From: a virus
DNA: 41,775 nt
Direction: 5' to 3' (one strand)
UHGV virus genome: UHGV-0209075
Shown: positions 3,868-36,055 of the stretch, piece by piece
Numbering within the stretch: position 1 is the stretch's first letter
Layout of the letters: every line of letters starts with the position of its first letter
Notes under the pieces: generated by a model
What the model was told of the DNA's origin: nothing
The model's input: only the letters and a program-made list of their open reading frames with translations
Databases searched by the model: none
Program-made: the position numbers and the translations under genes

Positions 3868-4293
3868 TTAGTGCATCACCACGGCATTTCCCGCCGGACC
3901 ACCACGATTCATCTGATTGAAACCAGCGATCGCCACTGCAACAAAATCATCAGCGTCTCTCACCAGTCGTTCCCGCGTCTCCACCAGTTCCCGAAACCAG
4001 GCTGAACTGTGGCTGCGCATTCGGGCCACCAGCAGAGGCGGCATTGCTTTTTCGATCGCTGGTAACAACGCCTGAATTTTTTTAACCGCATCAGGGGTGT
4101 CTTTCTCCACCCAGCGGAAAATTTTCTGAGTATTGCGAGCCAGGGCTTCCGGATGGCTGTCGTCATACAGTTCCGGGAACGTCATTCCCAGCTCGAAATA
4201 CGCTTTGGTAATTTTCGCAGCCGGTACTTTTTCGCCGTCCGGATGCGCCCAGGCATTCATCGCCATGCGGATGTGTTCATGCTTGATTTTCAT
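3868..4293 (-). CDS. CII-position regulator, resembles YdaT-family proteins of Rac-like prophages
   Basis: 141-aa ORF translationally coupled to cro-like gene (start/stop overlap at 4290-4293); N-terminus MKIKHEHI; synteny. Confidence 0.5.
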   Translation of the reverse strand: MKIKHEHIRMAMNAWAHPDGEKVPAAKITKAYFELGMTFPELYDDSHPEALARNTQKIFRWVEKDTPDAVKKIQALLPAIEKAMPPLLVARMRSHSSAWFRELVETRERLVRDADDFVAVAIAGFNQMNRGGPAGNAVVMH

Positions 4294-4505
4294 GAATCAT
4301 TCTTTCCTTCGTTCGAGGTGCTATCCTGCTTCTTGTAAAGTTCTGGGTTGTATTTCAATTCACCGTTAGTAATTTCATCCAGTTCCATTGCGCGAAGTTT
4401 GGGAATAACTGCTTGCCACCGCACAACAGCCACATGTGAAATTCCAAGAGCCTCAGCTACTAGTCGCTTTTTTTTGAAATAGCGCAGAACATCATCTTTG
4501 AACAT
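4290..4505 (-). CDS. Cro-like HTH regulator (YdaS/Cro type)
   Basis: 71-aa ORF divergent from repressor; HTH segment KKRLVAEALGISHVAVVRWQ; AGGAGA SD 5 nt upstream of ATG 4505. Confidence 0.7.
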   Translation of the reverse strand: MFKDDVLRYFKKKRLVAEALGISHVAVVRWQAVIPKLRAMELDEITNGELKYNPELYKKQDSTSNEGKNDS

Positions 4506-4534
4506 AAAACTCTCCTGTTATTTCGAGCAGGAGG

Positions 4535-4596
4535 GTAACAATAGTTACATAGCAATGTCAACCATAGCAACATCACTTGGTAGTAACATTGGTTAC
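4535..4596. promoter_or_regulatory. OR-like operator region: two 14-bp dyads GTAAC-N4-GTTAC (4535-4548, 4583-4596) in the repressor/cro intergenic region
   Basis: GTAACAATAGTTAC and GTAACATTGGTTAC, centre-to-centre 48 bp; the second abuts the repressor ATG at 4597. Confidence 0.5.
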
Positions 4597-5271
4597 ATGA
4601 AAAACACTATCAGCGAACGTATTCGGAATCGTCGAAAAGACGTTGGATTAACCCAACAGCAGGTTGCGAAAGCAATCGGCATATCTCGTGTATCCGTAAC
4701 AAAATGGGAAAATGGCTCTTCAAAACCTGACGGTGAGAATTTGCATCTACTGTCAAAATTGCTTTCCAAATCTCCTGAATGGATTCTTTATGGAAAGGAC
4801 GGTCACGATAAAACCGATGATCTGCGTCTGAATCAGTATCTTTACATTAGTGACAACATCGCCCGGTTGCCCGTTTTAACGTGGGAACAGGCTGGTTATT
4901 GGGATATGAGTTGTCCAGTAACCGAGATTCCTGGCATTAAGAATTGGGTTGATGTCATGACAAAAACCGCTGAAAACTCTTTTTTATTGCATGTTGAGGG
5001 AGATGCGATGACAAACTCTAACGGCCTCCCAACCATCCCCGATGGATCTACCGTGCTGATCACACCATGCTCAAGTAACATTAGAGAACTGGTGGGAAAA
5101 ATAATCTTAATCCAATTGGAAGGAACGCCAAACGTAACACTAAAAAAAGTTGCGATTGACGGACCAAACATCTATCTGTTGTCACTGAATCCGCTTTACA
5201 AACCCATCGAACTGAATGGTGGTTACACCATTAAAGGTAAAGTTTCACAAATACATCAATACTTAGACTGA
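4597..5271 (+). CDS. cI: CI-type repressor (HTH_XRE N-domain + LexA/S24-like C-domain) with Ala at the nucleophile position (GDAM instead of GDSM)
   Basis: HTH LTQQQVAKAIGISRVSVTKWENG; C-domain motifs HVEGDAMTNSNG and VTLKKV align by eye with lambda CI EVEGNSM / FTFKKL; start taken at ATG 4597 (ORF-track ORF begins at TTG 4498). Confidence 0.8.
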   Translation: MKNTISERIRNRRKDVGLTQQQVAKAIGISRVSVTKWENGSSKPDGENLHLLSKLLSKSPEWILYGKDGHDKTDDLRLNQYLYISDNIARLPVLTWEQAGYWDMSCPVTEIPGIKNWVDVMTKTAENSFLLHVEGDAMTNSNGLPTIPDGSTVLITPCSSNIRELVGKIILIQLEGTPNVTLKKVAIDGPNIYLLSLNPLYKPIELNGGYTIKGKVSQIHQYLD

Positions 5272-5277
5272 GTCAGA

Positions 5278-5300
5278 ACCCGCATTCATTGCGGGTTTTT
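5278..5300 (+). terminator. rho-independent terminator after repressor gene
   Basis: ACCCGCA-ttcat-TGCGGGT stem followed by TTTTT, 7 nt after the repressor stop. Confidence 0.65.
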
Positions 5301-5333
5301 CACGCTCTCAAATGTACCTTTTGCAACATCGTA

Positions 5334-5362
5334 TTGACTCGAAAGGTAACTCTTGTTACCTT
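5334..5362 (+). promoter_or_regulatory. candidate PL-like promoter with a third operator dyad in the spacer
   Basis: TTGACT (5334-5339), 17-bp spacer containing GTAACTCTTGTTAC (5346-5359), then TACCTT; same dyad as the two OR-like operators. Confidence 0.35.
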
Positions 5363-5682
5363 AACGGCATACCAACCCACCCCGCCCCACAGAATGCAGG
5401 GCAATACTTCGAGTTACCAGGCAGTGGTCAGGGGTTAAGTAGCCAGCCCGAGGCGTAAGAACATGACGGCAGGGTTCAACTTTAATAACTATGCAGCAGG
5501 TTTTTGTTCCGCTACCCCGGCGTTAAGGGGAAACAGAGGATTTCTCAGTGGGCGAAGTCAAACATCAGAATGGAAGGCATCCCGGGATCGGCAAAGAAGC
5601 AGCAATGGCGCTTTATATTGACATCAGCGCCATTGCCGGACAGGTAAGAATTATCAGAGCGGTAACTAAGCGGTATGCGCCT

Positions 5683-5883
5683 TTACTTCAGAAAGTCTCT
5701 GGTGAGTGCACCGAAGATATTGTCAACGATTTCGTCATCGAACTGCGAGGACTCATCTTCAGTTACAAGGTGACCACAATTTTTGCAGATGGCTCCCGCG
5801 AAACTGTCAGAGCCCTGCGGCTTAAAGGATGTGTCAAAGACTTCGCCACCACATTCTGGGCAAGAAAACTTGATTGTACTCAT
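5683..5883 (-). CDS. small zinc-ribbon protein (CPECGG...CKNCGH), acidic C-terminus; function unknown
   Basis: 66-aa ORF from ATG 5883 preceded by AGAGGA (8-nt spacer); two CxxCG pairs; a 9-bp-stem hairpin (about 5603-5634) lies downstream; convergent with repressor. Confidence 0.5.
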   Translation of the reverse strand: MSTIKFSCPECGGEVFDTSFKPQGSDSFAGAICKNCGHLVTEDESSQFDDEIVDNIFGALTRDFLK

Positions 5884-5975
5884 AACCAATTTCCTCTCGA
5901 GTAACAGACCCCTCAGAGGATACCACCTCGCCTGACGTGGTTAAAAGCAGGCAACGCTAACCACAAGGAGCCGAC

Positions 5976-6194
5976 ATGCAGAAACGAGAACCCGTCATCA
6001 TCGCGCCAGACTATACCGATGATGAACTTTATGAGTGGATGCGCCAGAAAATTAATGCAGCGCAGGATCTGAAATGGGCCAATGAAGCCAAGGCTAAGCA
6101 GGCTGAAAATCTGTCCGCTCTGGAGCAGGATATCACCAGGCTGGAAAAAGCAGCGGCATTAAGCATTGCCAGAATGATTACATACCAGCGTTAA
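5976..6194 (+). CDS. small coiled-coil protein (72 aa); function unknown
   Basis: ATG 5976 preceded by AAGGAG (5-nt spacer); divergent from zinc-ribbon gene with 92-bp intergenic region. Confidence 0.5.
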   Translation: MQKREPVIIAPDYTDDELYEWMRQKINAAQDLKWANEAKAKQAENLSALEQDITRLEKAAALSIARMITYQR

Positions 6195-6200
6195 TAGCTA

Positions 6201-6283
6201 ACCAACGAAGCTAAGGTTGGTAATTAAGGAGTTCTCCACGGGTGAAGTGGAGTGCGTGCGCCGGACACGGGTGAACATCCGGC
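6201..6283 (+). other. three tandem stem-loops; the second and third share the motif CACGGGTGAA
   Basis: ACCAAC/GTTGGT (6201-6221), CTCCAC/GTGGAG (6234-6252), GCCGGA/TCCGGC (6260-6283); 10-mer CACGGGTGAA at 6237-6246 and 6266-6275; no U-tracts. Confidence 0.4.
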
Positions 6284-6578
6284 ACTGACAGTTTACTGAA
6301 AGGATATTTCTCTGAAAAGTCAGAGCATAACGCGAAAGCACACGGAGAAGCTCGTCTCTCTGTACTTTGTCGTTAAATTTAATTCGACCGTGCGCTTCCG
6401 GTTGTGGCAATCCGCGAAATGGCGCGGCGGTAAGTATGGCGGGGTTATTCCTTCCCCTTGAGGACACCGGGTTGTCAGGCTGACCATACGCTTAAGTGAC
6501 AGCCACGCCACAATATCCATGTGTAGTCTTTGGTGGCATCAGTTCTACTCCGTGACTGCTCTGCCGCCCTTTTTAAAG

Positions 6579-6732
6579 TGAATTTTGTGATGCGGTGAAT
6601 GCGGCTCAGCGCACGCGGAACAGTTAAAACAAGCGGTCTTTTACGGGCGTAACGGGAATGCTCTGTATCCGGCGTTAATTGTTAACTGGTTAACGTCACC
6701 TGGAGGCACCAGGCACCGCATCACAAAATTCA
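6579..6732. repeat. 154-bp element bounded by a perfect 19-bp inverted repeat (TGAATTTTGTGATGCGGTG / CACCGCATCACAAAATTCA)
   Basis: Arms at 6579-6597 and 6714-6732 are exact reverse complements; right arm ends 5 nt before the GAGGA SD of the 6750 ORF; interior contains GTTAACTGGTTAAC and CCTGGAGGCACCAGG palindromes. Confidence 0.6.
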
Positions 6733-6749
6733 TTGTTGAGGACGCGATA

Positions 6750-6938
6750 ATGGAAACGTTATTACCAAACGTTAATACGTCTGAAGGTTGTTTTGATATT
6801 GGTGTTCTGCTCAGTAACCGGGAGTTTACGGAAGATGCCATTAAGATGAGAAAATATGAACCTTATCTTCTCAATGATAATTCCATACTTTCCAGAATTG
6901 CCCTTCTTGAACTTGGTATTATCGGAGAACAGCAGTGA
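6750..6938 (+). CDS. small protein (62 aa), AT-rich cargo gene; function unknown
   Basis: ATG 6750 preceded by GAGGA (7-nt spacer); lower GC than neighbours. Confidence 0.4.
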   Translation: METLLPNVNTSEGCFDIGVLLSNREFTEDAIKMRKYEPYLLNDNSILSRIALLELGIIGEQQ

Positions 6939-7123
6939 CTTCAGCATTTGCGCTGGTGATGACCGTTTTTCTTATAACGGGTGAGCCACAAAATGTGATT
7001 ACCGGAATTTATGACAGTAAGTCATCCTGCATTCAGGTAAGGGACGAACAAAAAATCCCCGGTGAATGCCTCCCGTTAAAAAAAGTATCGCTGAACCTGA
7101 ATAACGAAATACCGGCTGGATAA
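6935..7123 (+). CDS. small protein (62 aa) with N-terminal hydrophobic segment and two Cys; function unknown
   Basis: GTG 6935 overlaps the upstream stop (GTGA) and is preceded by GGAG (7-nt spacer), indicating translational coupling. Confidence 0.4.
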   Translation: MTSAFALVMTVFLITGEPQNVITGIYDSKSSCIQVRDEQKIPGECLPLKKVSLNLNNEIPAG

Positions 7124-7218: not shown

Positions 7219-9693
7219 ATGAGTAAAATCTTTATTTGCGCTGCTATTCCTGACGAACAGGCCATAAAAGAAGATAGCGCTGTTGCGGTGGCCACTGCCA
7301 TTGAAGCCGGTGATGAACGTCGCGCCCGCGCAAAATTTCACTGGCAATTCCTGGAACATTATCCGGCTGCTCAGGACTGCGCTTATAAATTTCTTGTTTG
7401 CGAGGATAAACCCGGTATACCCCGCCCTGCCCTCGATTCCTGGGATGCTGAATATATGCAGGAAAACCGCTGGGATGAGGAATCCGCTTCCTTTATTCCG
7501 GTCGAACCAGAATCCGATCCGATGAACGTCAATTTTGACAAGCTGTCCCTTGAAGTACAGAACGCGGTCCTGGTTAAGTTCGGTACATGTGAAAACATCA
7601 CCGTTGATATGGCGATTGACGCGCAGGAATTACTGCAGGAAGACGTTGCTACCTTTGACGGGCATATCGTTGAAGCACTGATGAAAACGCCTGAAATTAA
7701 CGCTATGTATCCGGAACGCAAACTGTTCGCTATCGGATGGGTTAAACACAAATGTAATCCGGGTGCCAAATGGCCAGAAATTCAGGCTGAATTACGTAAC
7801 TGGAAAAAACGGCAGGACGCAGAGCGCAAAGAGACTGGAAAATACACGTCTGTTGTTGATCTCGCCCGCGCCAGAGTCAATCAACAGCACACTGAAAACT
7901 CAGCAGGAAAAATCAACCCAGTCACTGCCGCCATTTGTCGCGAATACAAGCAGACATGGAAAACGCTGGATGAAGAACTGGCCTACGCTCTCTGGCCTGG
8001 CGATATTGATACCGGAAACATTGACGGCAGCATCCATCGCTGGGCAAAAAATGAAGTTATCGACAAAGATCGCGAAGACTGGAAGCGCATTTCCGCATCA
8101 ATGCGCAAACAACCCGATGCCGTTCGCTACGACCGTCAGACTATTTTTGGCCTTGTCCGTGAGCGTCCGATCGACATTCACAAAGATCCCGTAGCACTGA
8201 ACAAATACATCACTGAATACCTGACTACCAAGGGCGTGTTTGAAGATGACGAAGGAACAAATCAGGGCACAGCTGGTACTCTCCCGTCACCAGTACCAGA
8301 AACTGATGCAGTGGAAACGGCAATGCCGGACAACGAAAAAACCGAATGCGAAGTGGAAGACGAACCATCTGTAGAGCGTGAGGGACCGTTCTACTTCCTT
8401 TTCACCGATAAGGACGGCGAAAAATACGGTCGCGCAAACAAACTTTCTGGTCTGGAAAAAGCACTGGCCCTGGGAGCTACGGAAATCACAAAAGAGGAAT
8501 ACTTCGCACGTAAAAACGGCACGTACTCAGGTTCACAACAAAATACTGGTGCATCTGACACGATCGCACAACCAGAGCCGGTAAAAGTTACCGCTGACGA
8601 AGTAAACAAAATTATGCAGGCAGCCAATATCAGCCAGCCTGACGCCAATAAGTTGCTTGCTGTATCACGTGGTGAATTTGTTGCAGGGATTAGCGCCCCG
8701 AATGATCCGAAATGGGTGAAGGGGATTGAAACCCGCGATTCAGTGAATCAGAACCAGCAAGAAACGGAACAGAACGGCCAGAAAGCGGAACAAAACAGCC
8801 CAAATGCGTTACAAAACGAGCCAGAAACGAAACATCCTGAACCAGTGGCGCAACAGGAAGTGGAAAAAGTCTGCACCGCCTGCGGTCAGACCGGCGGCGG
8901 CAACTACCCTGATTGTGGCGCGGTGATGGGCGACGCAACATACCAGGAAACATTCGATGAAGAGTATCAGGTTGAAGTTCAGGAAGATGATCCGGAGGAA
9001 ATGGAAGGCGCTGAACATCCACACAAGGAGAACACTGGCGGCAATCAGCATCACGATAGCGATAATGAAACTGGCGAGACGGCAGATCACTCAATTAAGG
9101 TGAACGGTCATCAAGAAATCACATCCACCAGCAGGACGTGTGACCATCTAATGATCGACCTTGAAACCATGGGAAAAAATCCTGATGCCCCGATCATCTC
9201 AATAGGTGCAATATTTTTCGATCCGCAAACCGGAGATATGGGACCGGAATTTAGTAAGACTATCGATCTGGAAACTGCTGGCGGAGTCATTGATCGGGAC
9301 ACCATTAAATGGTGGCTTAAGCAATCACGCGAAGCGCAATCTGCCATTATGACCGATGAAATCCCGTTAGATGATGCACTGTTACAATTGCGGGAATTTA
9401 TCGACGAAAACTCCGGTGAATTTTTTGTTCAGGTCTGGGGAAATGGAGCCAACTTCGACAACACGATTTTGCGCCGTTCATACGAACGGCAGGGGATCCC
9501 CTGCCCGTGGCGTTACTACAACGATCGCGATGTACGCACAATCGTTGAGCTGGGGAAGGCCATAGACTTCGATGCCAGAACGGCTATTCCATTCGAAGGT
9601 GAGCGCCATAATGCACTTGATGACGCCCGTTACCAGGCAAAATACGTTTCAGCTATCTGGCAAAAACTGATCCCGAGTCAGGCTGATTTTTAA
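7219..9693 (+). CDS. large early-left protein with C-terminal DEDDh (DnaQ-like) 3'-5' exonuclease domain
   Basis: Exo motifs MIDLETMG, WGNGANFDNTIL and HNALDDARYQAKY in roughly residues 645-810; Glu/Gln/Asn-rich acidic linker; N-terminal ~340 aa unassigned. Confidence 0.7.
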   Translation: MSKIFICAAIPDEQAIKEDSAVAVATAIEAGDERRARAKFHWQFLEHYPAAQDCAYKFLVCEDKPGIPRPALDSWDAEYMQENRWDEESASFIPVEPESDPMNVNFDKLSLEVQNAVLVKFGTCENITVDMAIDAQELLQEDVATFDGHIVEALMKTPEINAMYPERKLFAIGWVKHKCNPGAKWPEIQAELRNWKKRQDAERKETGKYTSVVDLARARVNQQHTENSAGKINPVTAAICREYKQTWKTLDEELAYALWPGDIDTGNIDGSIHRWAKNEVIDKDREDWKRISASMRKQPDAVRYDRQTIFGLVRERPIDIHKDPVALNKYITEYLTTKGVFEDDEGTNQGTAGTLPSPVPETDAVETAMPDNEKTECEVEDEPSVEREGPFYFLFTDKDGEKYGRANKLSGLEKALALGATEITKEEYFARKNGTYSGSQQNTGASDTIAQPEPVKVTADEVNKIMQAANISQPDANKLLAVSRGEFVAGISAPNDPKWVKGIETRDSVNQNQQETEQNGQKAEQNSPNALQNEPETKHPEPVAQQEVEKVCTACGQTGGGNYPDCGAVMGDATYQETFDEEYQVEVQEDDPEEMEGAEHPHKENTGGNQHHDSDNETGETADHSIKVNGHQEITSTSRTCDHLMIDLETMGKNPDAPIISIGAIFFDPQTGDMGPEFSKTIDLETAGGVIDRDTIKWWLKQSREAQSAIMTDEIPLDDALLQLREFIDENSGEFFVQVWGNGANFDNTILRRSYERQGIPCPWRYYNDRDVRTIVELGKAIDFDARTAIPFEGERHNALDDARYQAKYVSAIWQKLIPSQADF

Positions 9694-9751: not shown

Positions 9752-9955
9752 ATGAGTAGCTTATTTTTAACCGAAGATGAATTGCTAATATTAACGGGCT
9801 GCAAATATGCAAGCCACCAGCGAAAATGGTTAACGGAAAACGGGCTTCCGTTCTATACCAATCGTAGTGGCAAACCGATTGTCAGCCGGGATCTATTTAC
9901 CTGCAATAAAACTTTACCACCACGCGAGGTAGAGCCGAATTTTGGTGCAATCTGA
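9752..9955 (+). CDS. excisionase-like small DNA-binding protein (candidate recombination directionality factor)
   Basis: 67-aa ORF whose TGA overlaps the integrase ATG (TGATG at 9953-9957); position immediately upstream of int; weak SD. Confidence 0.45.
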   Translation: MSSLFLTEDELLILTGCKYASHQRKWLTENGLPFYTNRSGKPIVSRDLFTCNKTLPPREVEPNFGAI

Positions 9956-10980
9956 TGGGAAGACGAAGGAAAAATCCTGAACACGAAAAACTACCTCCAA
10001 ATGTATATCCAAATAAATATAGTTATGTATGGAAACCAACATCCAGAGAATCTGTCACACTAACCGCCATCAAGGATGGTTTAGCTGCTTTATGGAAAAG
10101 GTATGAGGAAACTGTAAATAATCGCGATCGCGCAATGACATTCGGTCGCTTGTGGGAAAAATTCCTCGCCAGCGCCTATTACAGTGACCTCAGTCCAAGA
10201 ACACAAAAAGATTATCTGCAACATCAAAAAAAGTTGCTTGCCGTATTCGGTAAGGTGCCGGCAGATTCCATAAAACCAGAACACATCCGTCGATACATGG
10301 ACCAGAGAGGGGGGCAGAGTAAAACGCAAGCCAACCATGAAAAAAGCAGTATGTCCCGCGTTTACAGTTGGGGATATGAGCGAGGGTACGTGAAGGCTAA
10401 CCCATGTGCAGGTGTAAGTAAATTCAAGGCCAAAAACCGCGAACGATATGTAACCGACAAAGAATACCAGGCAGTATTAAGCGTTGCACCTCTTCCTGTT
10501 TTTATCGCAATGGAAATTGCCTATCTGTGTGCAGCGAGGGTTTCCGATGTGTTATCGCTGAAATGGGAGCAGATTGGAAACGACGGGATCTTTATCCAGC
10601 AAGGGAAAACAGGGAAAAAACAGATAAAAGCATGGAGTCCACGATTACAGGCGGCGATCGAAAAAGCAAAACAGTTACCAACATCCGCCTATGTAATCAG
10701 CAATCAATACGGCAACCGATATATGTACAAAGGCTTTAACGAAATGTGGGTAGAAGCAAGAAATCGCGCAGGCAAAATTTCAGGTATTTTAACCGACTTC
10801 ACCTTTCATGATCTGAAGGCGAAAGGAATTTCAGACTATGAAGGAAGCAGCCGGGATAAGCAACTTTTCTCTGGTCACAAAACCGAGGGGCAAGTGCTAA
10901 TCTATGACAGGAAGGTTAAAGTTTCACCGACACTTGATGTCCCGTTACCTGAAAATATTCCAAGAAAATATTCCAAGTAA
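9955..10980 (+). CDS. int: tyrosine integrase, lambda Int family
   Basis: N-terminus MGRRRKNPEHEKLPPNVY resembles lambda Int MGRRRSHERRDLPPNLY; 341 aa; adjacent to att core. Confidence 0.85.
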   Translation: MGRRRKNPEHEKLPPNVYPNKYSYVWKPTSRESVTLTAIKDGLAALWKRYEETVNNRDRAMTFGRLWEKFLASAYYSDLSPRTQKDYLQHQKKLLAVFGKVPADSIKPEHIRRYMDQRGGQSKTQANHEKSSMSRVYSWGYERGYVKANPCAGVSKFKAKNRERYVTDKEYQAVLSVAPLPVFIAMEIAYLCAARVSDVLSLKWEQIGNDGIFIQQGKTGKKQIKAWSPRLQAAIEKAKQLPTSAYVISNQYGNRYMYKGFNEMWVEARNRAGKISGILTDFTFHDLKAKGISDYEGSSRDKQLFSGHKTEGQVLIYDRKVKVSPTLDVPLPENIPRKYSK

Positions 10981-10987
10981 TTCCAAG
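10952..10987 (+). repeat. direct repeats ATTCCAAG (x3, including tandem 13-mer AAAATATTCCAAG x2) at the int 3' end; fourth copy at 11199-11206; candidate Int arm-type sites
   Basis: Copies at 10957-10964, 10970-10977, 10980-10987 and 11199-11206, all in the same orientation, flanking the att core on both sides. Confidence 0.4.
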
Positions 10988-11032
10988 TGTGATTTTTGTC
11001 ACTGACTTAATGATGTGTAAGTGATTGAATTT

Positions 11033-11093
11033 TGGCGGAGAGAGGGGGATTTGAACCCCCGGTGGAGTTGCCCCCACTCCGGTTTTCGAGACC
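11033..11093 (-). other. attP core: 3' ~61 nt of a tRNA-Ser(CGA)-like gene (anticodon loop to CCA) without the 5' half
   Basis: Minus-strand GGTCTCGAAAACCGGAGTGGGGGCAACTCCACCGGGGGTTCAAATCCCCCTCTCTCCGCCA has anticodon loop, long variable arm, T-arm GGTTCAAATCC and acceptor 3' strand plus CCA; sequence 5' of it is not tRNA-like. Confidence 0.6.
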
Positions 11094-11394
11094 GATGATA
11101 CAGAGTCGAAAAATCAAAGAGTTAAAAACTTTTCTTGGAATAAATGTCTTAAAATCGTACACGAAAAATCAATAAATTACATAACATTAAAGAAGAATAT
11201 TCCAAGCCTTCTTGAGGCCACCACCTGTTTTCAGGTGTCATTCAGACGTGATTTACCCCAGATTGGGTAAGCACGCTTTTTTTCTCAGCTTATTCCGTTT
11301 TGCCTGTGTGTTGAATAATTCCACTGCAGTTATATAAAATCGGTAACGGCTGGAAATCATTCAATACTAGCACTATCGAAAGTTAACCAGCCAA

Positions 11395-11440
11395 CCGCAG
11401 TATCCTGTCATGACAAGTTACTGCGGCTTTTTACTTTTTA
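11395..11440 (+). terminator. strong hairpin + U-tract beyond attP (tI/sib-like position)
   Basis: CCGCAGTA...TACTGCGG 8-bp outer stem with internal TGTCA/TGACA pairing, followed by CTTTTTACTTTTTATATTT. Confidence 0.5.
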
Positions 11441-11443
11441 TAT

Positions 11444-11731
11444 TTAACGGATCAACATCCAGATCAGCAGACACGCCACCACCGGCACAGCAAAATCCAT
11501 CAGGCTTGCCACATCCCACGCGCGTGGATCAAAACCGCCCCACCACGGCATGTTAATCCGCTTGCCATGCCCGAACATTTCAATCCAGCGATATTCTGCC
11601 TGGGTGTGTTCACGCGCAATGAAGAACGTACAACCGGCTATCGCCCCGTAAGCCCAGTTTCCGGTAAAAAGACCAGCCAGCCCCTGTACCGCCACAGCAC
11701 AAATTGCATGAAGTATCGGCGTGATATCCAT
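11444..11731 (-). CDS. small integral membrane protein (95 aa); function unknown
   Basis: ATG 11731 preceded by AAGGGGAG; hydrophobic N- and C-terminal segments; last gene of the minus-strand late arm before attP. Confidence 0.5.
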   Translation of the reverse strand: MDITPILHAICAVAVQGLAGLFTGNWAYGAIAGCTFFIAREHTQAEYRWIEMFGHGKRINMPWWGGFDPRAWDVASLMDFAVPVVACLLIWMLIR

Positions 11732-11740
11732 CTGCTCCCC

Positions 11741-12019
11741 TTAAAACCACTCCCTGAGCGGGCGCTCTGGTGTAACCACCCACTCACGGAACACGGAATC
11801 CTCAAATCCATCGTCAAGAAGACGGATATTAACAAAGTACCCTTCGTTTCGCGTGTATTCTGGTTCTCCGTCATCAGAAACATCTGTCTCCCTGAACGTA
11901 AAACCAATCTCATCAACCAGAACGGCATTCTGCAGCTCTTCGTCCTCTTCCCAGTTAAGTTTCCTGAGAAATGCCCTGAAATCTGCTTTATCACTGAAAC
12001 GCAACGTGAAATCTCTCAC
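11741..12019 (-). CDS. small acidic protein (92 aa); function unknown
   Basis: GTG 12019 overlaps the stf stop (GTGA) and is preceded by GGGGAGG (7-nt spacer). Confidence 0.45.
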   Translation of the reverse strand: MRDFTLRFSDKADFRAFLRKLNWEEDEELQNAVLVDEIGFTFRETDVSDDGEPEYTRNEGYFVNIRLLDDGFEDSVFREWVVTPERPLREWF

Positions 12020-14079
12020 TCCACAACCTCCCCAAGCTGCGCATCTGTTAGCTCTTTATGCCAGAGACGAAAATTCCTCACATGCCCAAATAAATGGCGT
12101 AATCCTGCTGTAGTTTGTCCACCAATGCGAATGGTTGCTGTACTCCGGATATATTCCCATTTGGTTTTAGTTTCGCTGCTTAACTTACCGTTACTGACTA
12201 CACATGTGGACCGTTCGGACTTTACCCGCATACCAATAAGCATTTTTTCCAGCCCGGCATTTTCATTTATTCGTCGGTCTGAACCACCTATATCGCAATA
12301 CGGAAAACCGTCGTACCCACCTGATGAACCAAACCCCATTACGATCCCCGCTCCGGTTTGATGACCGCCGGTATCAAAAACACGCGGCGCTACATTTGGC
12401 GTTTTATACCAGTTCTTATGTACCTCACAAAGAACCGTAAAAGGAAGATTATAAAGGTTATTCTTGATTGGGACTGTCACCATATCGCTTGCCCGCGTTG
12501 CCGGTGCCGTCCCCGTAACAATAAAAGATGATGCGCCTGTACCAGCCTCAATCTGTGGAGTGGTTACATCGAGATAATCCCCTGATGTAACCATCTGCCC
12601 TGTATCCGGAGAATACTGGACAAAACCACCAACCGTATTTTCTGTTGTATCTGCTTTTAATGTAGCCTCAAAAAATATCCAGCCAGTTGCATCATCCTTA
12701 ACAGACCTTGCTGTAACACGGCTTGTCTGACCTGTCTTGCTAATTATGCGGGTGGTAAGGTTCAGGTTTGCTGCTCCTATTGATGTCCTTACCTCCCCAT
12801 CATAATGTTCAAATAAAATACGAACGGCGATATTATCAACTTCACTTTTTACCCGACAGGATATAGTTACATGCTTTTCGTCCCCTGAAGTATCAACCCC
12901 TCCGGTACTCGAATACAGTCCGATAATGGTATGCGCTTTACTTGTACCAACAATCGAATCCTGTACGACAAACCGACCATAATTAAACCCGAAACTATCT
13001 GTGCCTGTTTCTGTAACGTCCAGTGAAGTTGACTTATTCCACTTCGAAGGGTCTGTACTGTTCTGGAAGAAGTTCGTTCTTTGTCCCTCAATAAGCAGGC
13101 CATCACACTCAAATCGCGGCTCATTAATTTCCGCCGTTTTCAGTTCGCCAGATTTGTTGATATATGTTGCCGTTGATGCGCGACTGAAATTAACCTGTTT
13201 ATCACTGGCAACCTGAACCACATTATCACCAATCTTCACTTTTTTATAACCCGGAGAATAGCCCGTAATCATATCCAGCGAATCATTAAAGGGTATCCAC
13301 ACATCCGGCAGCGGCTGTAAAACATATCTGTACGGCTCTGCTGTCTGGTTTGCGTATTCTCTGGCAGCATCTTCACTTGCTTTTGCTGCCGTCTGGCTTG
13401 CTGCCGATGCTTTCGCCGAGTTCGCCGCCGCTGTTTCGCTCACCTTTGCGTTGGCTTCACTGTCTTTGGCATTCGTCTCACTGGTTTTCGCTGCCGTCTG
13501 GCTGGATTTTGCGTTTTTTTCGCTGGCCTTTGTGGCTGTCTCGCTATTTTTCGCGCTGGTTTCTGATTTTTTGGCTGCTGTCGCGGAGTTTGCCGATGCA
13601 GTCTGCGAGGCCGCTGCCGCCTGTGCGCTGTTAGCTGCATTCGTTTCTGAGGTTTTCGCCGCATTCTTCGATGAGGCTGCTGCCGTTTCGGATTTCTTTG
13701 CCGCCGCTGCACTCTGTGATGACGCTCCGGCATGACGTGCCACTTCATTCACCATCAGCTCAAAACGGCGCAGTGCCTCCGGACGAACATCATCCTCCGT
13801 CATGGCGCCGAGAAAATCATTCAGCGTACCTGGTCTGGAACCTTCATAGACGGTAATGGTCCCGGCATGTGAAGGCGGAAAATCTTCAACCAGCAGGGTG
13901 ACGCTGTACTGGCCATACTCAACATCCATGCTGTAACGCCCGGCTTCATCCGGATTTTCAGAGGCCACCGTGTTCACCACCACCGTGCTGCTGGTCCGTC
14001 TGGCCTTCAGCACAATGGTGCAGTTCTGTACTGGTTTTCCTGTGCCATCTTTAAGCACGCCAGAAATTTTTACTGTCAT
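12016..14079 (-). CDS. stf: side tail fibre protein
   Basis: N-terminal ~130 aa very close by eye to lambda Stf (VKISGVLKDGTGKPVQNCTI...), Ser/Ala/Lys/Glu-rich repeat shaft, divergent C-terminal domain. Confidence 0.85.
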   Translation of the reverse strand: MTVKISGVLKDGTGKPVQNCTIVLKARRTSSTVVVNTVASENPDEAGRYSMDVEYGQYSVTLLVEDFPPSHAGTITVYEGSRPGTLNDFLGAMTEDDVRPEALRRFELMVNEVARHAGASSQSAAAAKKSETAAASSKNAAKTSETNAANSAQAAAASQTASANSATAAKKSETSAKNSETATKASEKNAKSSQTAAKTSETNAKDSEANAKVSETAAANSAKASAASQTAAKASEDAAREYANQTAEPYRYVLQPLPDVWIPFNDSLDMITGYSPGYKKVKIGDNVVQVASDKQVNFSRASTATYINKSGELKTAEINEPRFECDGLLIEGQRTNFFQNSTDPSKWNKSTSLDVTETGTDSFGFNYGRFVVQDSIVGTSKAHTIIGLYSSTGGVDTSGDEKHVTISCRVKSEVDNIAVRILFEHYDGEVRTSIGAANLNLTTRIISKTGQTSRVTARSVKDDATGWIFFEATLKADTTENTVGGFVQYSPDTGQMVTSGDYLDVTTPQIEAGTGASSFIVTGTAPATRASDMVTVPIKNNLYNLPFTVLCEVHKNWYKTPNVAPRVFDTGGHQTGAGIVMGFGSSGGYDGFPYCDIGGSDRRINENAGLEKMLIGMRVKSERSTCVVSNGKLSSETKTKWEYIRSTATIRIGGQTTAGLRHLFGHVRNFRLWHKELTDAQLGEVVE

Positions 14080-14093
14080 ACTTTTCCACCAAT

Positions 14094-14124
14094 AAAAAAA
14101 GCCCGCAGCAGTGACGCCACGGGC
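14094..14124 (-). terminator. rho-independent terminator downstream of lom
   Basis: GCCCG...CGGGC hairpin followed on the minus strand by U7. Confidence 0.5.
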
Positions 14125-14230
14125 TTCAGGACAGTGTAACTTTACGTTTCCTCAAACGCAGTTCACCCCATAAGGCGGATGAACCTGCGTATCATAACAA
14201 TATTTACAGAAGATAAATCGGCGTCTGTTG

Positions 14231-14830
14231 TCAGAAACGGTATCCGATACCAACAATAAATGCATCCGTTCGCCAGTCGCCACTACCGGAACCTTCATAA
14301 GCAATATCAATGGTCACGGATTCGGTCGGGTTAAACTGCACGCCAGCTCCCCACGCCAGAGACGTGTTGCTGTGGCGATCGTCATCACTTCCGGTCAGCA
14401 CATCGTGCGTTTTCCCCTTGTTGTCAGTTACGCGGAGATAATCCCCGGAGAACGTCGACACACGGCTGTAAGCCACACCTGCCATCGCATAAGCACTGAA
14501 CCATTCATTCACGCGTACAGATGGCCCCGCCATCACGCTGAACCAGCGGTTACGCACGGAATCTTCATGCCAGCGGGTATCGCTGTAGTGCGTTTTTTGC
14601 TCATCTTTGGCATTGGCATAACTGAATGACGTCACCAGCCCCAGCGTGTCCGTAAACTCATAACGGTATTTCACGTTAATCCCGTTCAGATCATCGCTGC
14701 CAGGCATATCAGTATGGGTCTGAAGATACCCGGCGCTTAGTGTGGACTGATGCTCTGCTGCGCTCGCTGGCGTACCAGCGGCAACCAGCCAGACTACTGC
14801 GGACAGAATAACAGCACATAATTTACGCAT
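14231..14830 (-). CDS. lom: Lom/Ail/OmpX-family outer-membrane beta-barrel protein
   Basis: Signal peptide plus alternating beta-strand pattern ending GIGYRF; position between J and stf as in lambda. Confidence 0.85.
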   Translation of the reverse strand: MRKLCAVILSAVVWLVAAGTPASAAEHQSTLSAGYLQTHTDMPGSDDLNGINVKYRYEFTDTLGLVTSFSYANAKDEQKTHYSDTRWHEDSVRNRWFSVMAGPSVRVNEWFSAYAMAGVAYSRVSTFSGDYLRVTDNKGKTHDVLTGSDDDRHSNTSLAWGAGVQFNPTESVTIDIAYEGSGSGDWRTDAFIVGIGYRF

Positions 14831-14854
14831 AATTACCTCTCGCTTTTCTGCAAT

Positions 14855-14878
14855 AAAAAAGGCGCCATTTCTGGCGCC
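14855..14878 (-). terminator. hairpin + U-tract between J and lom
   Basis: GGCGCC-atttct-GGCGCC followed on the minus strand by U6. Confidence 0.55.
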
Positions 14879-14897
14879 CGTATTGGGGTTATAAAAT

Positions 14898-17800
14898 TCA
14901 GCTAATCGTGATGCCTGCAGTGGCTTTCTTCATCACAACAACCAGCAAATCGCTGATACTTGCTGTGGGATACCAGCCATTTACCCACCATGCTGATACA
15001 GAAAACTCCAGCGTCATGTCGCCGCGACCAGCAGGCATATCAATAACACCACTGTAAACCAGCGTATTATCCATCGCGGTACGGTTATAAATTTCAGCAC
15101 CGTTTTTCTTCACTATCAGGCGGCATGACGAATAAGTATCGCTGTTCTCCCGCTCATGTCTGGCACCGCTGAAAGCCACCGCCGGAATAACAATCTGCCG
15201 GTTAAACGGCTGATCGTCATAAACCCTGACGGTAATGGTTCCTGATGGCCAACGCTTCGGTGCACGGGAGTCACGAGGGAAAGCCTTACCCACTGTTTTA
15301 ACGAGATCGCCTTCAATCTGGTTTGCAGACAGTTTCCCTCTGATGACACAGTTCTCGTTAATGGTGACATTATTGAGCGTGCCGGTATTCGCCGTGATGG
15401 CTCCACTGATATCCGCATTGCGGGCTGTCAGCCTGCCATCCGGCGTCAGGGAAAACGTCGGAGGATTGCCGGATGACGTGATGCTCACCGCAAACAGTCG
15501 CTTCAGGAACACGTCGTTCATGAACAGCTGATTCCCCTGCGCCACAAACAGCGGCGTGGTGTTGCCGTTCTCCGGGGTAATCATCGCAATGCGATCGGCC
15601 TGCAGCAGAATGTTACTCAGGGTCTGACCATCAACATCCTCAATCCCCGCACCAATCCCGGCCACATAGGGAATACCGTTTTTTGTTTTCTGCACCTTCA
15701 GCATATACATGGCATTCAGCTCATTGCGCGTGTCTGACTGAACCCGCTGGATTTGCTGTATGGTCACGGCCTGGTCACCCAGTTTTTTATCCGTGGTCGA
15801 GGTAATTTCACTCCCTTTTTTATCCACGTACTGGCGGACCTGTGCTATCTGTCGGGCATTTTCTGACTGCCCCTGGCTGACAGTCTGTGAGATTTCACTG
15901 CTCACCCGGTCCACTTTCTGGCTCACCTGCGCGATGGCCAGTGTCTGGTCCTCATTCTTTTTCGCAACCAGCTGCGTGAGGCTGTTTTCCGCCTCCCCGA
16001 TTTTCCGGGTCACTTCTGCGATATCCGTGTCCATCCGCTGACGGATGTCTTCTTCCAGTTGCGTGACCTCCGTACGCAGCGCTGAAGCATCAATGCGCTC
16101 TTTCAGTGCCTGGCCCAGAAGCGTCTCATCTATCAGCCCCCGGAAAATTTCCAGATACCCTTCACCATCATTGCTGGGCTGCCCGCTGGCTTCCACAAAA
16201 GCAGATTTTCCCACCAGGTTGACGCTTCGCACGTAAAACCAGAAATCCGTCCCCGGCTTAATCCGGCTCCCCTGGACAGTCCACTGACTGCCGGTCCCCA
16301 GATAACGGGCAGATTTTTCCACCTGTGCTGTGTTCGTGATGCGTTTTTCTGAGAACCAGAATTCAAACTGTACCGTCGGGTCATACACCGCAAGACGCGG
16401 GACCGCCGTTATCTGAAAATACCCCGGCGTCAGCTCAATGGTGGCGGGTTTTGCAGGTGCGTTAATCCGGAACGATACCGACGCCGGATCGCCCTGCTGT
16501 CCCCGGGCATTTACCGCCCGGACCGTCAGCGTGTAACGCCCCAGCGCCAGCTGCCTGAAGCGGTAAGTGGTTTCCGCCGTCCGGGCCGTGCTGACCAGCC
16601 GCTCACTGCCGTCATCCGCTGTTACGGTCAGACGGAGCAGGAAGCTCACGCCCTTCACCACCTTCGGCGTGTCCCAGCGCGCCAGCACCTGATATTCCCC
16701 GCTGTCTGCGGTGACTTCGGCGGTCAGGTGCTGCACCGCTGGCGGCGTGACACCATTCACCGTGCCGCTCTGGTCGCCGTCAAAGTGCGCTCCGTTATCC
16801 ACGATGGCCTCTTTTTCCGGTACATGCTGCACGGCGGTGATGGCATACGCACCGTCATCGTTCTCCCGGATACTCACACAGCGGAACAGGCGCTGGCGCA
16901 GCGTCGGCAGCTTCAGCCCCCACACGCTGTATTCGGCAACGCCGTCAGGAATACGGCTCACTTTCACCTTCACGCCGTCGGTGACGGACTGGACCTCCAC
17001 GCTGACCGGATTCCCACTTCCGTCAACCAGGCTTATCAGCGTGGTGCCGGAGGATGACAGCATGATTTCACGGTCGAGCGTCAGCGTCCGGGTCTGGCTG
17101 TTCACCGCCAGCACGCGCCCGCCGGTGCTGATACCGGCATAGTCATCATCACAGATTTCAATGACATCGCCCGGAACATGGCGAAGCCCTTCTGCGCCGA
17201 CGCTGAAGTCCACGGTCTGCGTTTCCAGCAGTTCTGTTTTAATCAGCCACAGCCCGGCGCGGTGTGCCTGCCCCCGGCTGGTACAGCCAAAGGCATCCAT
17301 CTTCGTGACGTTACGACCGTAACGGGCAATGGCCTGCGTGTCCTCCACAAGCTCTGTTGCCGTCTCCCAGCCGTTATCCGGGTCAATCCAGTTCACCTCA
17401 ACGGCATTATGGCGGTCCTTCAGGGCGCTGAAGCTGTAGCGGAACGGCGCGCCATCATCCGGCATCACCACATTACTGCGGTTATAGGTCCACACCTTAT
17501 CCGACGGTCGGTCCTGCACGAACGTCAGCGTCTGCCCGTTCCATACCGGCATACAGCGCATCGCCGAGCAAAAATCACTGAGCACATCCCACGCCTTGCG
17601 CTGTGTGGTCAGGTACGCATTACAGGTGATGCGCGGCTCCGTGCCGCCAAAGCCGTCCGGCACTGACTGGTCGCAGTACTGGCCGATGACATACAGCGCC
17701 CATTTATCCACATCCGCTGCACCAAGACGTTTCCCCATGCCGTAGCGCGGATGGGTCAGCATATCCCACAGACACCAGGCCATGTTGTTGCTGTATGCCG

Positions 17801-18596
17801 GTTTAAACGTTCCGTCCCAGATACCGCTGTATTGCCGCGTCTGCGGGTTATAATTCGACGGCACCTGCAGAATACGCCCGCGCAGATGATAATTACGGCT
17901 CACCTGCTGGCTGCCGAACTGTTCCGAGTCCACCTGTACGCCGACCAGTGCCGTGTTCGGGTAGCACTGTTTCACATCGATGATTTCGGTGTATGACGAC
18001 CAGAGCGTTTTGTTCTGCAGCTGGTCTGTGGTGCTGTCCGGCGTCATCCTGCGCATCCGGATATTAAACGGGCGCGGCGGCAGGTTATCCACCACCACCG
18101 AGGCCAGATACTGCGAGGTGGTTTTGCCTTTAATGGTGATGTCTTTTTCCGTCACCCAGCCACCATTACGCTGTATCTGAACCAGCAGGCGGACTTCCGA
18201 CGGATTCCGGTCACCCTTTGAGGTGGTTTCCACCAGTGCCTGCACACCGAAGGTAAAGCGCAGACGGTCGATGTTTGCCGACGTGATGGTGCGGGTGATC
18301 GGCGTGTCATATTTCACTTCTGTACCGAGCACCGTCTCGGAGCCGGAGGATTCAAAACCTTCCGGCGGTGTCTGCTCCTGCTCACCTGCCCGGAACACCA
18401 CCGTGACGCCGGAGATGTTGGTATTCCCCTCACTGTCCAGCACCGGCGTACTGTTCAGCAGCACGCTTTTTAATCCATCCACCGGACCTTCAATCGGCCC
18501 TTCGCTGATGGCATCAATCACACTCAGCAGTTGCGTGGACTTCAGGTTGTCCTTCGCTTCGCGCGGGGTATGCCCCTTACTGCTTCCTTTGCCCAT
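14898..18596 (-). CDS. J: tail tip host-specificity protein J
   Basis: 1232 aa; N-terminus [43 protein letters not shown] matches lambda J as I recall it. Confidence 0.9.
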
Positions 18597-34288: not shown

Positions 34289-34756
34289 TTATCTGAGACA
34301 TTGCTCACGAATGTATAGCTGTGCCCCTTCCAGTTGCTTCTGCATCGTCATCAACCGTTCTCTGAGGGTGAAATAATCCCGTTCAGCGGTGTCTGCCAGT
34401 CTGGGGCTGGTTGCATTATCCACGCTGGTGGGTCCGGTGGCTTCACGCACGGCTGCGGAGCAACTGGCATTGACCCGCAGGCGCTTACGACCAGCGGCAA
34501 CATCAGCGCGCAGAGTTTCATTTTCAGCTTTCGCATTGGCTAATTCTCTCGAGTACTTTGCATCGAGCGCAGCAACATCACGCTGACGCTGTTGCATGTC
34601 AGCGATGGTGGCAGTCGCCTGCTTCAGCTCACTGACTTTTTTATCACGCTGTTCTTTGTAGGCGATGGCGTTATCACGGTAATGATTGACCGCCCACGAC
34701 AGGCAGACGATGGTGCAGATAACCAGAGTATAAATAATCGCTGCGACTCTGCTCAC
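34289..34756 (-). CDS. Rz: i-spanin Rz
   Basis: GTG 34756 overlapping endolysin stop (GTGA), GGGGGA SD; N-terminal TM helix, periplasmic coiled-coil; contains embedded Rz1. Confidence 0.8.
34351..34536 (-). CDS. Rz1: o-spanin Rz1 (lipoprotein) embedded in Rz in a different frame
   Basis: [20 protein letters not shown] lipobox followed by Pro-rich mature peptide. Confidence 0.75.
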
Positions 34757-35286
34757 TGATCTATCCCCCAACAGGCTAATGCGCTTTCCTGGTCACGACG
34801 AATAACCTGTCCATAGCAGTTATTTGAACGTATGCGGCAATCGCGCCCACCATCTTTTATCCACCAGCGAATCGCCTCGCATGCGCCCTTACGATCACCG
34901 GCATTCAGCCGCTTATAAAACGTCGACGGGAAACACTTACCGGGGCCAATGTTATAGGGACAGAATGACGCTATACCCGCTTTCTGTGGTTCGGTCAGTG
35001 GTACTTTAATATTGCGCTCTACCCATGCCAGCGCCTTATCACGTTCAATAGCGTTAACCTGGTCGCATTTTTCCTTCGACAGCTTCATTCCCGGTATGAC
35101 GGGCTTACCATCCACCATTGTGGCACCCCGACAGATGGTCCAGATGCCGGCCCCATCGCGGTATGCCGTTGTGTGGTTACCTTCTTTTTCATCCAGAAAC
35201 TGGTCGAGAATATCAGGCGCGGGCGCACCGACGGCAATCAGTGCCAGAACGGCAGCCGACAGGCCGTATCTGATTTTTGCGTTCAT
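34753..35286 (-). CDS. R: SAR endolysin (phage-21-type lysozyme)
   Basis: N-terminal signal-anchor-release helix ([15 protein letters not shown]) and E-x8-D-x5-T catalytic triad ([16 protein letters not shown]). Confidence 0.85.
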
Positions 35287-35349
35287 GGATATTTATCAGG
35301 ATTTATCGGTTTCTGCCCACGGACAGGTTTATCTGTTCCGGTCAGTGAC

Positions 35350-35700
35350 TTAAGGTTGTGATTCCGGAGGAGTCTTCAGAGAACCAGTAATTCTTCCTGG
35401 TAGCTTTCCTTTGTAGGTTATCCACACATTCTGCGCCTCTAAAATTACGGGGCGCTTTTCCGGCGACTGCTCATCCCCTTCACATAACCCGGCAGCAACA
35501 TCCAGGAAGACCTGTCTGATGCTCCTTCTGGCTGCTGCCTCATAAAACCCCAGCGCGGCACCTTCAACACGGTCCAGCGAGATGTCCAGGTCAAAAATTT
35601 CACCGTCAAAGCGTTTTTTGTCCCGTAACGCTAAAGTTACCGTAACTTTATTCTCAAAATTGCGGATCCCTTTCACAATCAGTTCATAGTTTTGAGTCAT
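35350..35700 (-). CDS. hypothetical protein (116 aa) between holin and endolysin
   Basis: ATG 35700 preceded by GGGGAGAG, 4 nt after holin stop; soluble-looking. Confidence 0.5.
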   Translation of the reverse strand: MTQNYELIVKGIRNFENKVTVTLALRDKKRFDGEIFDLDISLDRVEGAALGFYEAAARRSIRQVFLDVAAGLCEGDEQSPEKRPVILEAQNVWITYKGKLPGRITGSLKTPPESQP

Positions 35701-35704
35701 TGAA

Positions 35705-35920
35705 TTACTCTCCCCGTGCAGCCTTACGACGGTCCTCTCTGATTTTGAAATACAGGTTAGTCAGATATGTCAGGAAGCCCAGAACCAGACTCCCCAGTAC
35801 ACCAATCGCAGCCCACTGTGACGGACTGACCTGATCAAGCCACTGTAAAAACCAGTAGCCAGCACTGCCTGCGGAGGTGCCGTAGGCAATGCCCGTTGAA
35901 ATTTTATCCATGGATTTCAT
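35705..35920 (-). CDS. S: pinholin/antiholin S21-type with dual start (MKSM)
   Basis: From ATG 35920 (GGAGGTGA SD): [29 protein letters not shown]; two TM segments; second Met at codon 4. Confidence 0.85.
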
Positions 35921-36055
35921 AGCCTCACCTCCGCAGCGAACGGATGGCGTAGTTATAAGGGGAGCGAAAAAGAAAGAATGCGCGATTGCGCAATATGGTA
36001 ACGTCAGGGTATTATCCACTGGCTGAATAGATCACTTCACGTTTTTTGTTCCTTG

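Follow-up and report, generated by a model that had tools for sequence, protein, structure and literature searches.

Organization of the stf–ORF92–ORF95 block

The interval between the side tail fibre gene stf and the attachment site (att) of UHGV virus genome UHGV-0209075 (41,775 nt, analysed as a whole and called the window below; all positions are those of the whole window) carries two small open reading frames (ORFs), ORF92 and ORF95, named here by the lengths of their products in amino acids (aa). The sequences of this two-gene cassette were already known, as hypothetical proteins, for example in phage 21. What is new is that stf, ORF92 and ORF95 form a conserved three-gene architecture, that the ORF92 family extends beyond Escherichia, and that ORF95 belongs to a large family linked to receptor-binding genes. 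The features of the block, in the order in which they are read, are:

12016–14079, minus strand: stf, side tail fibre, 687 aa (ORF listing and profile matches)
12027–12033, minus strand: Shine–Dalgarno sequence GGGGAGG of ORF92, inside the 3' end of stf and 7 nt before the GTG (read from the sequence)
11741–12019, minus strand: ORF92, 92 aa, GTG start, an acidic soluble alpha/beta protein of phrog_1361, related to phrog_18574
11735–11742, minus strand: ribosome-binding site of ORF95, AAGGGGAG, overlapping the TAA stop of ORF92 and 3 nt before the ATG (read from the sequence)
11444–11731, minus strand: ORF95, 95 aa, ATG start, a three-helix membrane protein of phrog_1443

The TGA of stf and the GTG of ORF92 share 4 nt (tcac on the plus strand at 12016–12019, which is GTGA on the coding strand), and in the phage 21 record a ribosome-binding site is annotated at the position equivalent to the ORF92 Shine–Dalgarno sequence. 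The ORF92 stop codon TAA (11743–11741) is followed by GGGGAG (11740–11735), CAG and the ORF95 ATG at 11731, which leaves a spacing of 9 nt between the two genes. A first-pass annotation, made from the letters alone, had described ORF92 as an acidic 92-aa product joined to the stf stop by the GTGA overlap behind GGGGAGG, and ORF95 as a 95-aa protein with hydrophobic segments at both ends behind the same ribosome-binding site as listed above. Both descriptions were confirmed: ORF92 has an isoelectric point of 4.28 (24 D/E versus 12 K/R), and ORF95 has a grand average of hydropathy of +0.56 with hydrophobic maxima at residues 4–39 and 74–94. A simple consensus scan of the minus strand from 10900 to 14900, which is a crude test, found no sigma-70-like site; this range includes the coding strand between the upstream late gene lom and ORF95. 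We picture stf, ORF92 and ORF95 as the 3'-terminal receptor-recognition block of the late operon, which would be translated in coupled series.

Both ORFs are conserved genes

ORF92 matched phrog_1361 (E = 1e-40) and, weakly, phrog_18574 (E = 1e-4), and ORF95 matched phrog_1443 over its full length (E = 5.5e-56); all three families are of unknown function. Hundreds of homologues were found for the two genes, and the dN/dS ratios among E. coli copies (0.25–0.30 for ORF92, 0.19 for ORF95) point to purifying selection on both. The classical phage 21 (OL657228) holds the same cassette, with CPT_21_23 and CPT_21_24 labelled ‘hypothetical protein’ and ‘putative membrane protein’, as do many infant-gut and ECOR lambdoid phages. 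The phage 21 locus, a side tail fibre gene, a 92-aa gene with a 4-nt overlap and a 97-aa membrane protein that is 88% identical to ORF95, does not differ in kind from that of the window; as the record gives no function, it serves as annotation precedent only.

The homology and structure searches that the first-pass annotation had proposed led to these PHROG families and to no named family or PDB fold. Pfam and NCBIfam scans of both proteins gave nothing above noise, neither protein matched a PADLOC model at E values up to 1 or any Pfam exclusion family, and a profile search against PDB sequences returned nothing. A Pfam scan of 55 distant ORF95 relatives produced scattered chance matches only, a BFVD search returned uncharacterised phage proteins only, and a literature search found no paper on the ORF92 or the ORF95 family.

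ORF92 follows a particular type of distal fibre domain

In Stf, a phage_tail_N anchor at the N-terminus is followed by a shaft of Ala/Ser-rich repeats and a distal domain of ~425 aa of the phrog_1419/phrog_5939 type, which includes a GTA_spike_fiber domain. The arrangement around it was examined in 80 E. coli viral contigs found via ORF95. In 79/80 of these loci, stf is followed by an ORF92-family gene (with an overlap of 4 or 1 nt), an optional gene for a 227–346-aa protein, and ORF95, and the Stf distal domain is homologous in the same proportion (79/80). Every locus examined has the ORF92-family gene overlapping the stop codon of the fibre gene or directly adjoining it. When the search was started from ORF92 instead, ORF95 lay downstream in 75/75 evaluable E. 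coli loci.

The subtype of ORF92 co-segregates with the final 50 residues of Stf: an ORF92 of ≥92% identity is always accompanied by a Stf with ≥96% identity over its last 50 aa. Tight co-evolution of ORF92 with the whole distal domain was considered and rejected, as a distal domain 87% identical to that of the window can carry a 42%-identical ORF92; only the last ~50 Stf residues track ORF92. This pattern would fit either a physical interaction between ORF92 and the fibre C-terminus or simple linkage of adjacent sequences.

The optional gene, present between ORF92 and ORF95 in most E. coli relatives, encodes a short fibre of 227–346 aa (phrog_4563) with a Peptidase_S74 intramolecular chaperone domain. 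Its insertion hints at branched or dual fibres (examples lie at 4405–5109 and 4918–5958 of the relatives' stretches).

Outside Escherichia there are prophages of Comamonas and Pantoea in which an acidic protein of 95–188 aa is encoded between a phrog_5939/1419-type fibre and an ORF95 homologue. These acidic proteins matched ORF92 with an hhalign probability of 77% (E = 2e-5), with combined hidden Markov model E values of 1e-14 to 1e-17, and matched phrog_18574 at 1e-11 to 1e-12; judged by these profile comparisons, they are remote ORF92 homologues. Eight beta- and gammaproteobacterial viral loci of this type were found with an ORF92-like query. The ORF92-like gene directly follows a fibre-sized protein in 8/8 of them, with a 4-nt overlap in 7/8, and the upstream protein has similarity to the Stf distal domain that BLAST can detect in 7/8. 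The Stf distal domain was also detected upstream in species-level loci of Comamonas, Pantoea and Chelativorans. An ORF95 homologue comes next in only 4/8 of the Comamonas/Pantoea-type loci. Because the ORF92-like gene follows the fibre in all eight and ORF95 in only half, the fibre domain and ORF92 appear to be the obligate pair. As evidence for this tie the non-Escherichia loci carry more weight than the Escherichia loci.

ORF92 as a probable fibre-specific partner

The predicted structure of ORF92 is a confident soluble alpha/beta domain (predicted local distance difference test, pLDDT, 88). From its position we infer that ORF92 would be a cytoplasmic, fibre-specific partner of the phrog_1419/5939-type distal domain; we think it rather probable that it is such a partner, most likely an intermolecular chaperone or an assembly factor associated with the tip, of a type new in sequence and fold. 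It is well established that a chaperone gene can come directly after its fibre gene, as in T4, Mu, R-pyocins and phage V22 (gp27), and some chaperone types share no detectable homology with others (PMC7289586). A new type of fibre helper is the most economical reading for this reason.

ORF92 resembles the Tfa-type chaperones (Tfa of lambda and Mu, G of P2, gp38/gp57A of T4, the R-pyocin chaperones and gp27 of Alteromonas phage V22) in that it is encoded just downstream of its fibre gene (GTGA overlap in the window; 79/80 E. coli and 8/8 Comamonas/Pantoea-type loci), in an arrangement of co-transcribed genes. Like them it is translationally coupled, inherited en bloc with the fibre's C-terminal end, small and soluble; it differs from them in having half the size of Tfa or gp38, and its chaperone activity is putative.

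Several observations speak against a chaperone. No sequence or fold similarity to characterised fibre chaperones was found in the Pfam, NCBIfam and PDB fold comparisons: ORF92 matched none of the Caudo_TAP, DUF4376 and gp38 families and had no significant PDB fold match, to a solved fibre chaperone or otherwise. Linkage alone could explain why ORF92 co-segregates with the Stf C-terminus. Moreover, in this sample the extra short fibre gene always accompanies the 93/89-aa subtype of ORF92, an association that fits an adaptor as well as a chaperone. Alternatively, ORF92 might be a virion component that sits on the distal fibre domain as its adaptor or tip protein; in the relatives it would dock the extra short fibre and so give a branched fibre. 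Besides the perfect association just described, this alternative can draw on Mu Tfa, which remains bound to the fibre tip (discussed in PMC7289586). It is harder to reconcile with the window and with every 92-aa-subtype locus, none of which has a second fibre gene, and with the Comamonas-type homologues, which likewise occur without one. We regard an adaptor as unlikely, while noting that sequence data do not separate an adaptor or tip role from a chaperone role. The suggestion in the first-pass annotation that ORF92 could be a small fibre chaperone thus gained strong support from context (the fibre overlap, the co-segregation with the Stf C-terminal end and the Comamonas/Pantoea synteny) and gained nothing from homology.

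ORF95 belongs to a large family of conserved membrane proteins

The AlphaFold model of ORF95 is a confident three-helix bundle (helices 4–23, 26–53 and 74–94; pLDDT 94.6), for which no specific structural neighbour was found. A word-indexed search returned 565 relatives, and a full profile search gave 441 clusters at 50% identity, all of them stand-alone proteins of ~90–120 aa. Among relatives that are 28–49% identical to ORF95, residues H8, R40, E41, Q44, A45, E46, W72 and P83 are invariant or nearly so, and R58 and D79 are also conserved. The loop is near-invariant in the family (RE.xQAEYRWI...MPWWGGF), and closer relatives share the longer motif AREHTQAEYRWI...GKR.NMPWWGGFD.R.W. The window protein has the family length (~95–105 aa), the phrog_1443 motif (RE.xQAEYRWI...R..MPWWGGF...W....D...P) and every family-invariant residue. 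Its N-terminus, MDITPILHAICAV, is without a basic n-region, and neither a lipobox nor a signal peptide like those of Cor and Llp is present; C11 is not conserved across the family. In the E. coli loci, ORF95 identity stays at 88–100% while that of the Stf distal domain spans 39–100%.

The family is found immediately 3' of receptor-binding genes of many kinds. A fibre, spike or fibre-assembly gene stands immediately before the family member in 8/9 contig look-ups and in 6/6 of the annotated phage types examined, and the upstream fibre or spike gene is often overlapped by 4 nt. The settings are:

Lambdoid siphophages: homologue immediately 3' of a receptor-binding or fibre-assembly gene
Comamonas prophage: homologue after a 2520-aa J-like protein
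HP1/P2-like myophages of Leclercia, Aeromonas and Enterobacter, and Halomonas phage phiHAP-1: homologue after a receptor-binding or fibre-assembly gene
P22-like podophages and prophages: homologue after a GDSL or pectate-lyase tailspike
160-kb Salmonella-associated contig: homologue between two tailspike genes
236-kb (jumbo) Aeromonas phage: homologue between two large putative fibre genes
Virulent 47.7-kb coliphage (siphophage): homologue is an unannotated ORF after the last structural gene

The upstream receptor-binding proteins have no common fold; they include a LamG-like fibre, S74 fibres, pectate-lyase and GDSL spikes and Tfa-like proteins.

A survey with one genome per species gave 70 ORF95-family loci in gamma-, beta- and alphaproteobacteria and Desulfovibrio. 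At least 13 of the 42 upstream proteins examined were fibre, spike or fibre-assembly proteins, and others were plainly housekeeping (pirin, ligA, DAHP synthase, PNPase). Pirin lies upstream in four Aeromonas genomes, three among the 42 plus A. rivipollensis, and ligA, the gene for NAD-dependent DNA ligase, lies directly upstream in three alphaproteobacterial genomes, which makes this a conserved chromosomal position. No phage genes surround the A. rivipollensis homologue (6001–6309 of the stretch examined), which lies downstream of pirin and is oriented convergently with a RIO1/Kdo-kinase-like gene and two genes for lipid A acyltransferases. Orphan genes on chromosomes, in surroundings otherwise free of phage genes, are thus part of the family.

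One homologue is truncated and chimeric. In phiSTEC1575-Stx2k, which was deposited as a complete phage genome, the gene (1717–2016 of the stretch examined) lies directly after a different type of tail protein; its product is 98% identical to ORF95 over residues 35–95, and its N-terminus has been swapped for an unrelated, non-hydrophobic sequence, with the junction inside the FFIAREHTQ motif. At the DNA level, ORF95 is 85–90% identical over ~240 nt between lambdoid siphophages and P22-like podophages (Gally, 4001–4288 of the stretch examined, and 611R6), and lambdoid and Gally-type phages otherwise have unrelated receptor-binding genes. This identity across morphotypes, together with the chimeric Stx2k junction, suggests that the ORF95 gene may serve as a homology arm for the exchange of receptor-binding cassettes. 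Separately, DNA matches to Stx phages were set aside, as they turned out not to involve ORF95.

Possible roles of ORF95

We propose that ORF95 would be a small polytopic inner-membrane protein that is not fibre-specific and travels with receptor-binding genes of many kinds. It would be dispensable for virion assembly as such and would act late in infection on a conserved host envelope component, where it might keep superinfection or re-adsorption in check, or change an envelope pathway linked to the membrane by means of its invariant His/Arg-Glu/Glu/Asp polar cluster. The gene would hitch-hike with receptor-binding cassettes because those modules are exchanged when phages change host. An accessory inner-membrane protein of this kind is our best guess, put forward with considerable reserve; the combined reading of the two genes, in which ORF92 is a fibre-specific partner and ORF95 an accessory envelope protein, is tentative, at somewhat less than an even chance. 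ORF95 is probably made late, with the fibre, because virulent phages and tail operons carry it and no sigma-70-like promoter of its own was found. Its constancy against a varying Stf and against unrelated receptor-binding folds indicates that it is not matched to one receptor, which argues against masking in the style of Cor or Llp. Its absence from half of the Comamonas-type loci, the Stx2k truncation and the lone chromosomal copies argue against an essential role in assembly.

Other observations count against this proposal. Expression late in infection would suit superinfection exclusion of the classical kind poorly, and the tight coupling to receptor-binding genes in the tail operons of virulent phages could instead reflect a role in the maturation of receptor-binding proteins. 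Topology is also contradictory: the charge bias (5.3–5.5 K/R in the loop versus ~0.5 in the C-terminal tail) favours a cytoplasmic loop, in conflict with the TMHMM prediction in the phage 21 record of two transmembrane domains with both termini inside, which places the loop outside.

The alternative closest to the first-pass annotation, which had proposed the membrane protein as a superinfection-exclusion or receptor-masking factor, is a lysogenic-conversion gene (moron) that is expressed from the prophage and excludes superinfection or masks the receptor of the fibre, on the models of Cor, Llp and HK97 gp15. ORF95 is a membrane protein according to its model, and the family occupies known conversion hotspots, namely the lambdoid fibre-to-att interval and the P2 Z/fun position after the fibre genes; it also fills the slot between the P22-like tailspike and int, where a gap of 240 nt could hold a promoter. 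That orphan copies exist in chromosomes hints that the gene benefits the cell. Against this, family members occur in virulent phages, which never form lysogens, and in the window the gene is packed closely behind late genes, to which it is translationally tied, with no sigma-70-like promoter called by the crude scan. The same ORF95 accompanies different fibre receptor-binding domains and different types of receptor-binding protein, it lacks the lipobox and the signal peptide that mark Cor and Llp (C11 being unconserved), and it matches no PADLOC or Pfam exclusion family. We consider a moron unlikely, and receptor-specific masking in particular is disfavoured by the 88–100% identity of ORF95 beside Stf distal domains as little as 39% identical, by the unrelated receptor-binding proteins, by the virulent phages and by the orphan copies. 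The first-pass annotation had also framed the interval as a hotspot for accessory genes; that framing suits ORF95, loosely, and does not suit ORF92, whose behaviour is that of a fibre-module gene. If ORF95 instead served receptor-binding proteins in general, as a membrane-located maturation or assembly factor (for example a docking platform or folding aid), its immediate adjacency to fibre and spike genes in tail operons and virulent phages, often with a 4-nt overlap, and its presence in 75/75 evaluable Escherichia ORF92 loci would be accounted for. A specific client interaction is hard to picture when the upstream proteins have no common fold, and the gene is missing behind ORF92-like genes in 4/8 related prophages, truncated in phiSTEC1575-Stx2k and conserved alone in chromosomes beside pirin or ligA; such a factor seems to us less probable still than a moron.

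ORF95 might also be a membrane protein with a part in lysis, as a holin, an antiholin or a lysis-timing factor; for the position behind a receptor-binding gene there is a precedent in T7, where the holin gp17.5 follows the tail-fibre gene. ORF95 has the small transmembrane build of class I holins such as lambda S105 (~100 aa, three hydrophobic helices), and in one E. coli prophage a homologue stands directly before a cassette of two holin genes, an endolysin gene and Rz. That prophage, which carries the cassette, already has two recognised holins, and the window has separate lysis-sized ORFs, assigned by position only, at 34289–36019, some 22 kb away; ORF95 as the holin of the phage was rejected on these two grounds. 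ORF95 further differs from class I holins in lying away from the endolysin in the window, in having no dual-start motif and no charged C-terminal domain (its tail has 1–4 residues, with a mean of 0.5 K/R), and in its 34-residue near-invariant loop, which is unlike the fast-evolving holins; the stable chromosomal orphan copies also fit poorly. We consider any lysis function very improbable.

Comparison with characterised exclusion proteins sharpens the distinction. Cor (phi80, N15, T1, mEp167) and Llp of T5 are outer-membrane lipoproteins matched to one receptor, FhuA. ORF95 is like them a small envelope protein encoded next to a receptor-binding gene; it differs in being a polytopic helical protein without a lipobox, and the same protein stands behind unrelated receptor-binding proteins, so that neither the lipobox signal peptide nor the specificity matched to the adjacent receptor-binding protein is found in it. 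HK97 gp15, T4 Imm and P22 SieA are small inner-membrane proteins like ORF95, and HK97 gp15 is also encoded in the tail gene region. They show no sequence relation to ORF95 in the Pfam and PADLOC scans, and they are narrowly distributed and fast-evolving, whereas the ORF95 family is 40–60% identical across alpha-, beta- and gammaproteobacteria, chromosomal genes included. Unlike the inner-membrane exclusion proteins, ORF95 has no promoter of its own that the crude consensus scan detects.

A bolder extension of the accessory-protein proposal would make the ORF95 family a hitherto unrecognised partner that accompanies receptor-binding modules almost universally in proteobacterial phages. The His/Arg-Glu/Glu/Asp cluster would form an active or binding site through which the protein acts on a conserved part of the envelope, with a lipid-linked glycan carrier and a core membrane machine as candidate targets. 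The gene would be carried from host to host with the receptor-binding genes and provide a 3' homology arm for swaps of fibre and spike cassettes between siphophages, myophages and podophages, and ORF92 would be a new class of fibre chaperone. We offer this combination as speculation, with a rather low chance of holding in full.

Receptor-binding modules are the phage parts most often exchanged in nature, and also those most often engineered when phages, or delivery particles derived from them, are to be retargeted. Should this widespread type of fibre depend on ORF92 as an obligatory partner, grafting it onto another chassis would fail unless ORF92 is moved with it. The ORF95 family is large, extremely conserved and present in temperate phages, virulent phages and some chromosomes. 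Its steady position points to an as yet unexplored connection of host recognition with the inner membrane, and phage 21 or the inducible lambdoid phages from ECOR and the infant gut would make genetic tests of it easy.

Surroundings of the block and the attachment site

The remaining features of the region are:

14898–18596, minus strand: J, late gene (ORF listing)
14231–14830, minus strand: lom, Lom-family outer-membrane gene, late gene (ORF listing)
11390–11432: hairpin directly 3' of the ORF95 stop (-21 kcal/mol, z -3.75)
~11034–11095, minus strand: 3' fragment resembling tRNA-Ser(CGA), covering anticodon loop to CCA, probable attachment-site core
9955–10980, plus strand: tyrosine integrase (int), 341 aa, transcribed towards the att fragment (ORF listing)

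The gene order J, stf, att, int is the vegetative order of lambda-like phages. Upstream of stf, two terminator-like hairpins with T runs (14098–14127 and 14860–14879, minus strand) flank lom, as in a classical moron; stf, ORF92 and ORF95 are without insulation of the kind that brackets lom.

Downstream, ORF92 and ORF95 are the last genes before the attachment site, as the first-pass annotation had stated: no additional ORF of ≥60 aa was found in 11087–11444, beyond which lie the tRNA-Ser fragment and int. ARAGORN found no complete tRNA at 11034–11095. The tRNA-Ser(CGA)-like fragment is probably the attachment-site core, which suggests a serine tRNA gene as the integration target; we take this gene to resemble serU. 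The reading of the site as attP, also part of that annotation, has to be qualified. The int/att/ORF95 junction is contiguous in the E. coli M15 chromosome, where int is frameshifted (5256–7032 of the M15 stretch, corresponding to 9955–11731 of the window), and because of this the site could be a junction of tandem or rearranged prophages and not a free attP; the M15 arrangement speaks for such prophages there in place of one simple lysogen. The RefSeq annotation of the identical M15 junction supports a tyrosine integrase.

The hairpin at 11390–11432 is near-perfect. A strong T run, CTTTTTACTTTTT, comes after it on the plus strand, against only a weak U tract on the minus strand, and it was not called in a strict terminator scan. 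Its probable role is to end the late transcript, to stop transcription from the int side (plus strand), or both. Relative to int it is placed beyond att, and in lambda the tI/sib element lies at the corresponding place beyond att. In relatives such as PhiR40_1, a dinI-like gene precedes this hairpin.

Elsewhere in the window, phage-borne tRNA-Arg(TCT) and tRNA-Met(CAT) genes lie at 36984–37234 on the minus strand, upstream of the lysis-sized ORFs. The early region contains an ORF of 824 aa (7219–9693, plus strand), the E. coli M15 counterpart of which is annotated with a 3'-5' exoribonuclease domain; upstream of that counterpart, the M15 record has dicB and ydfC-like genes.

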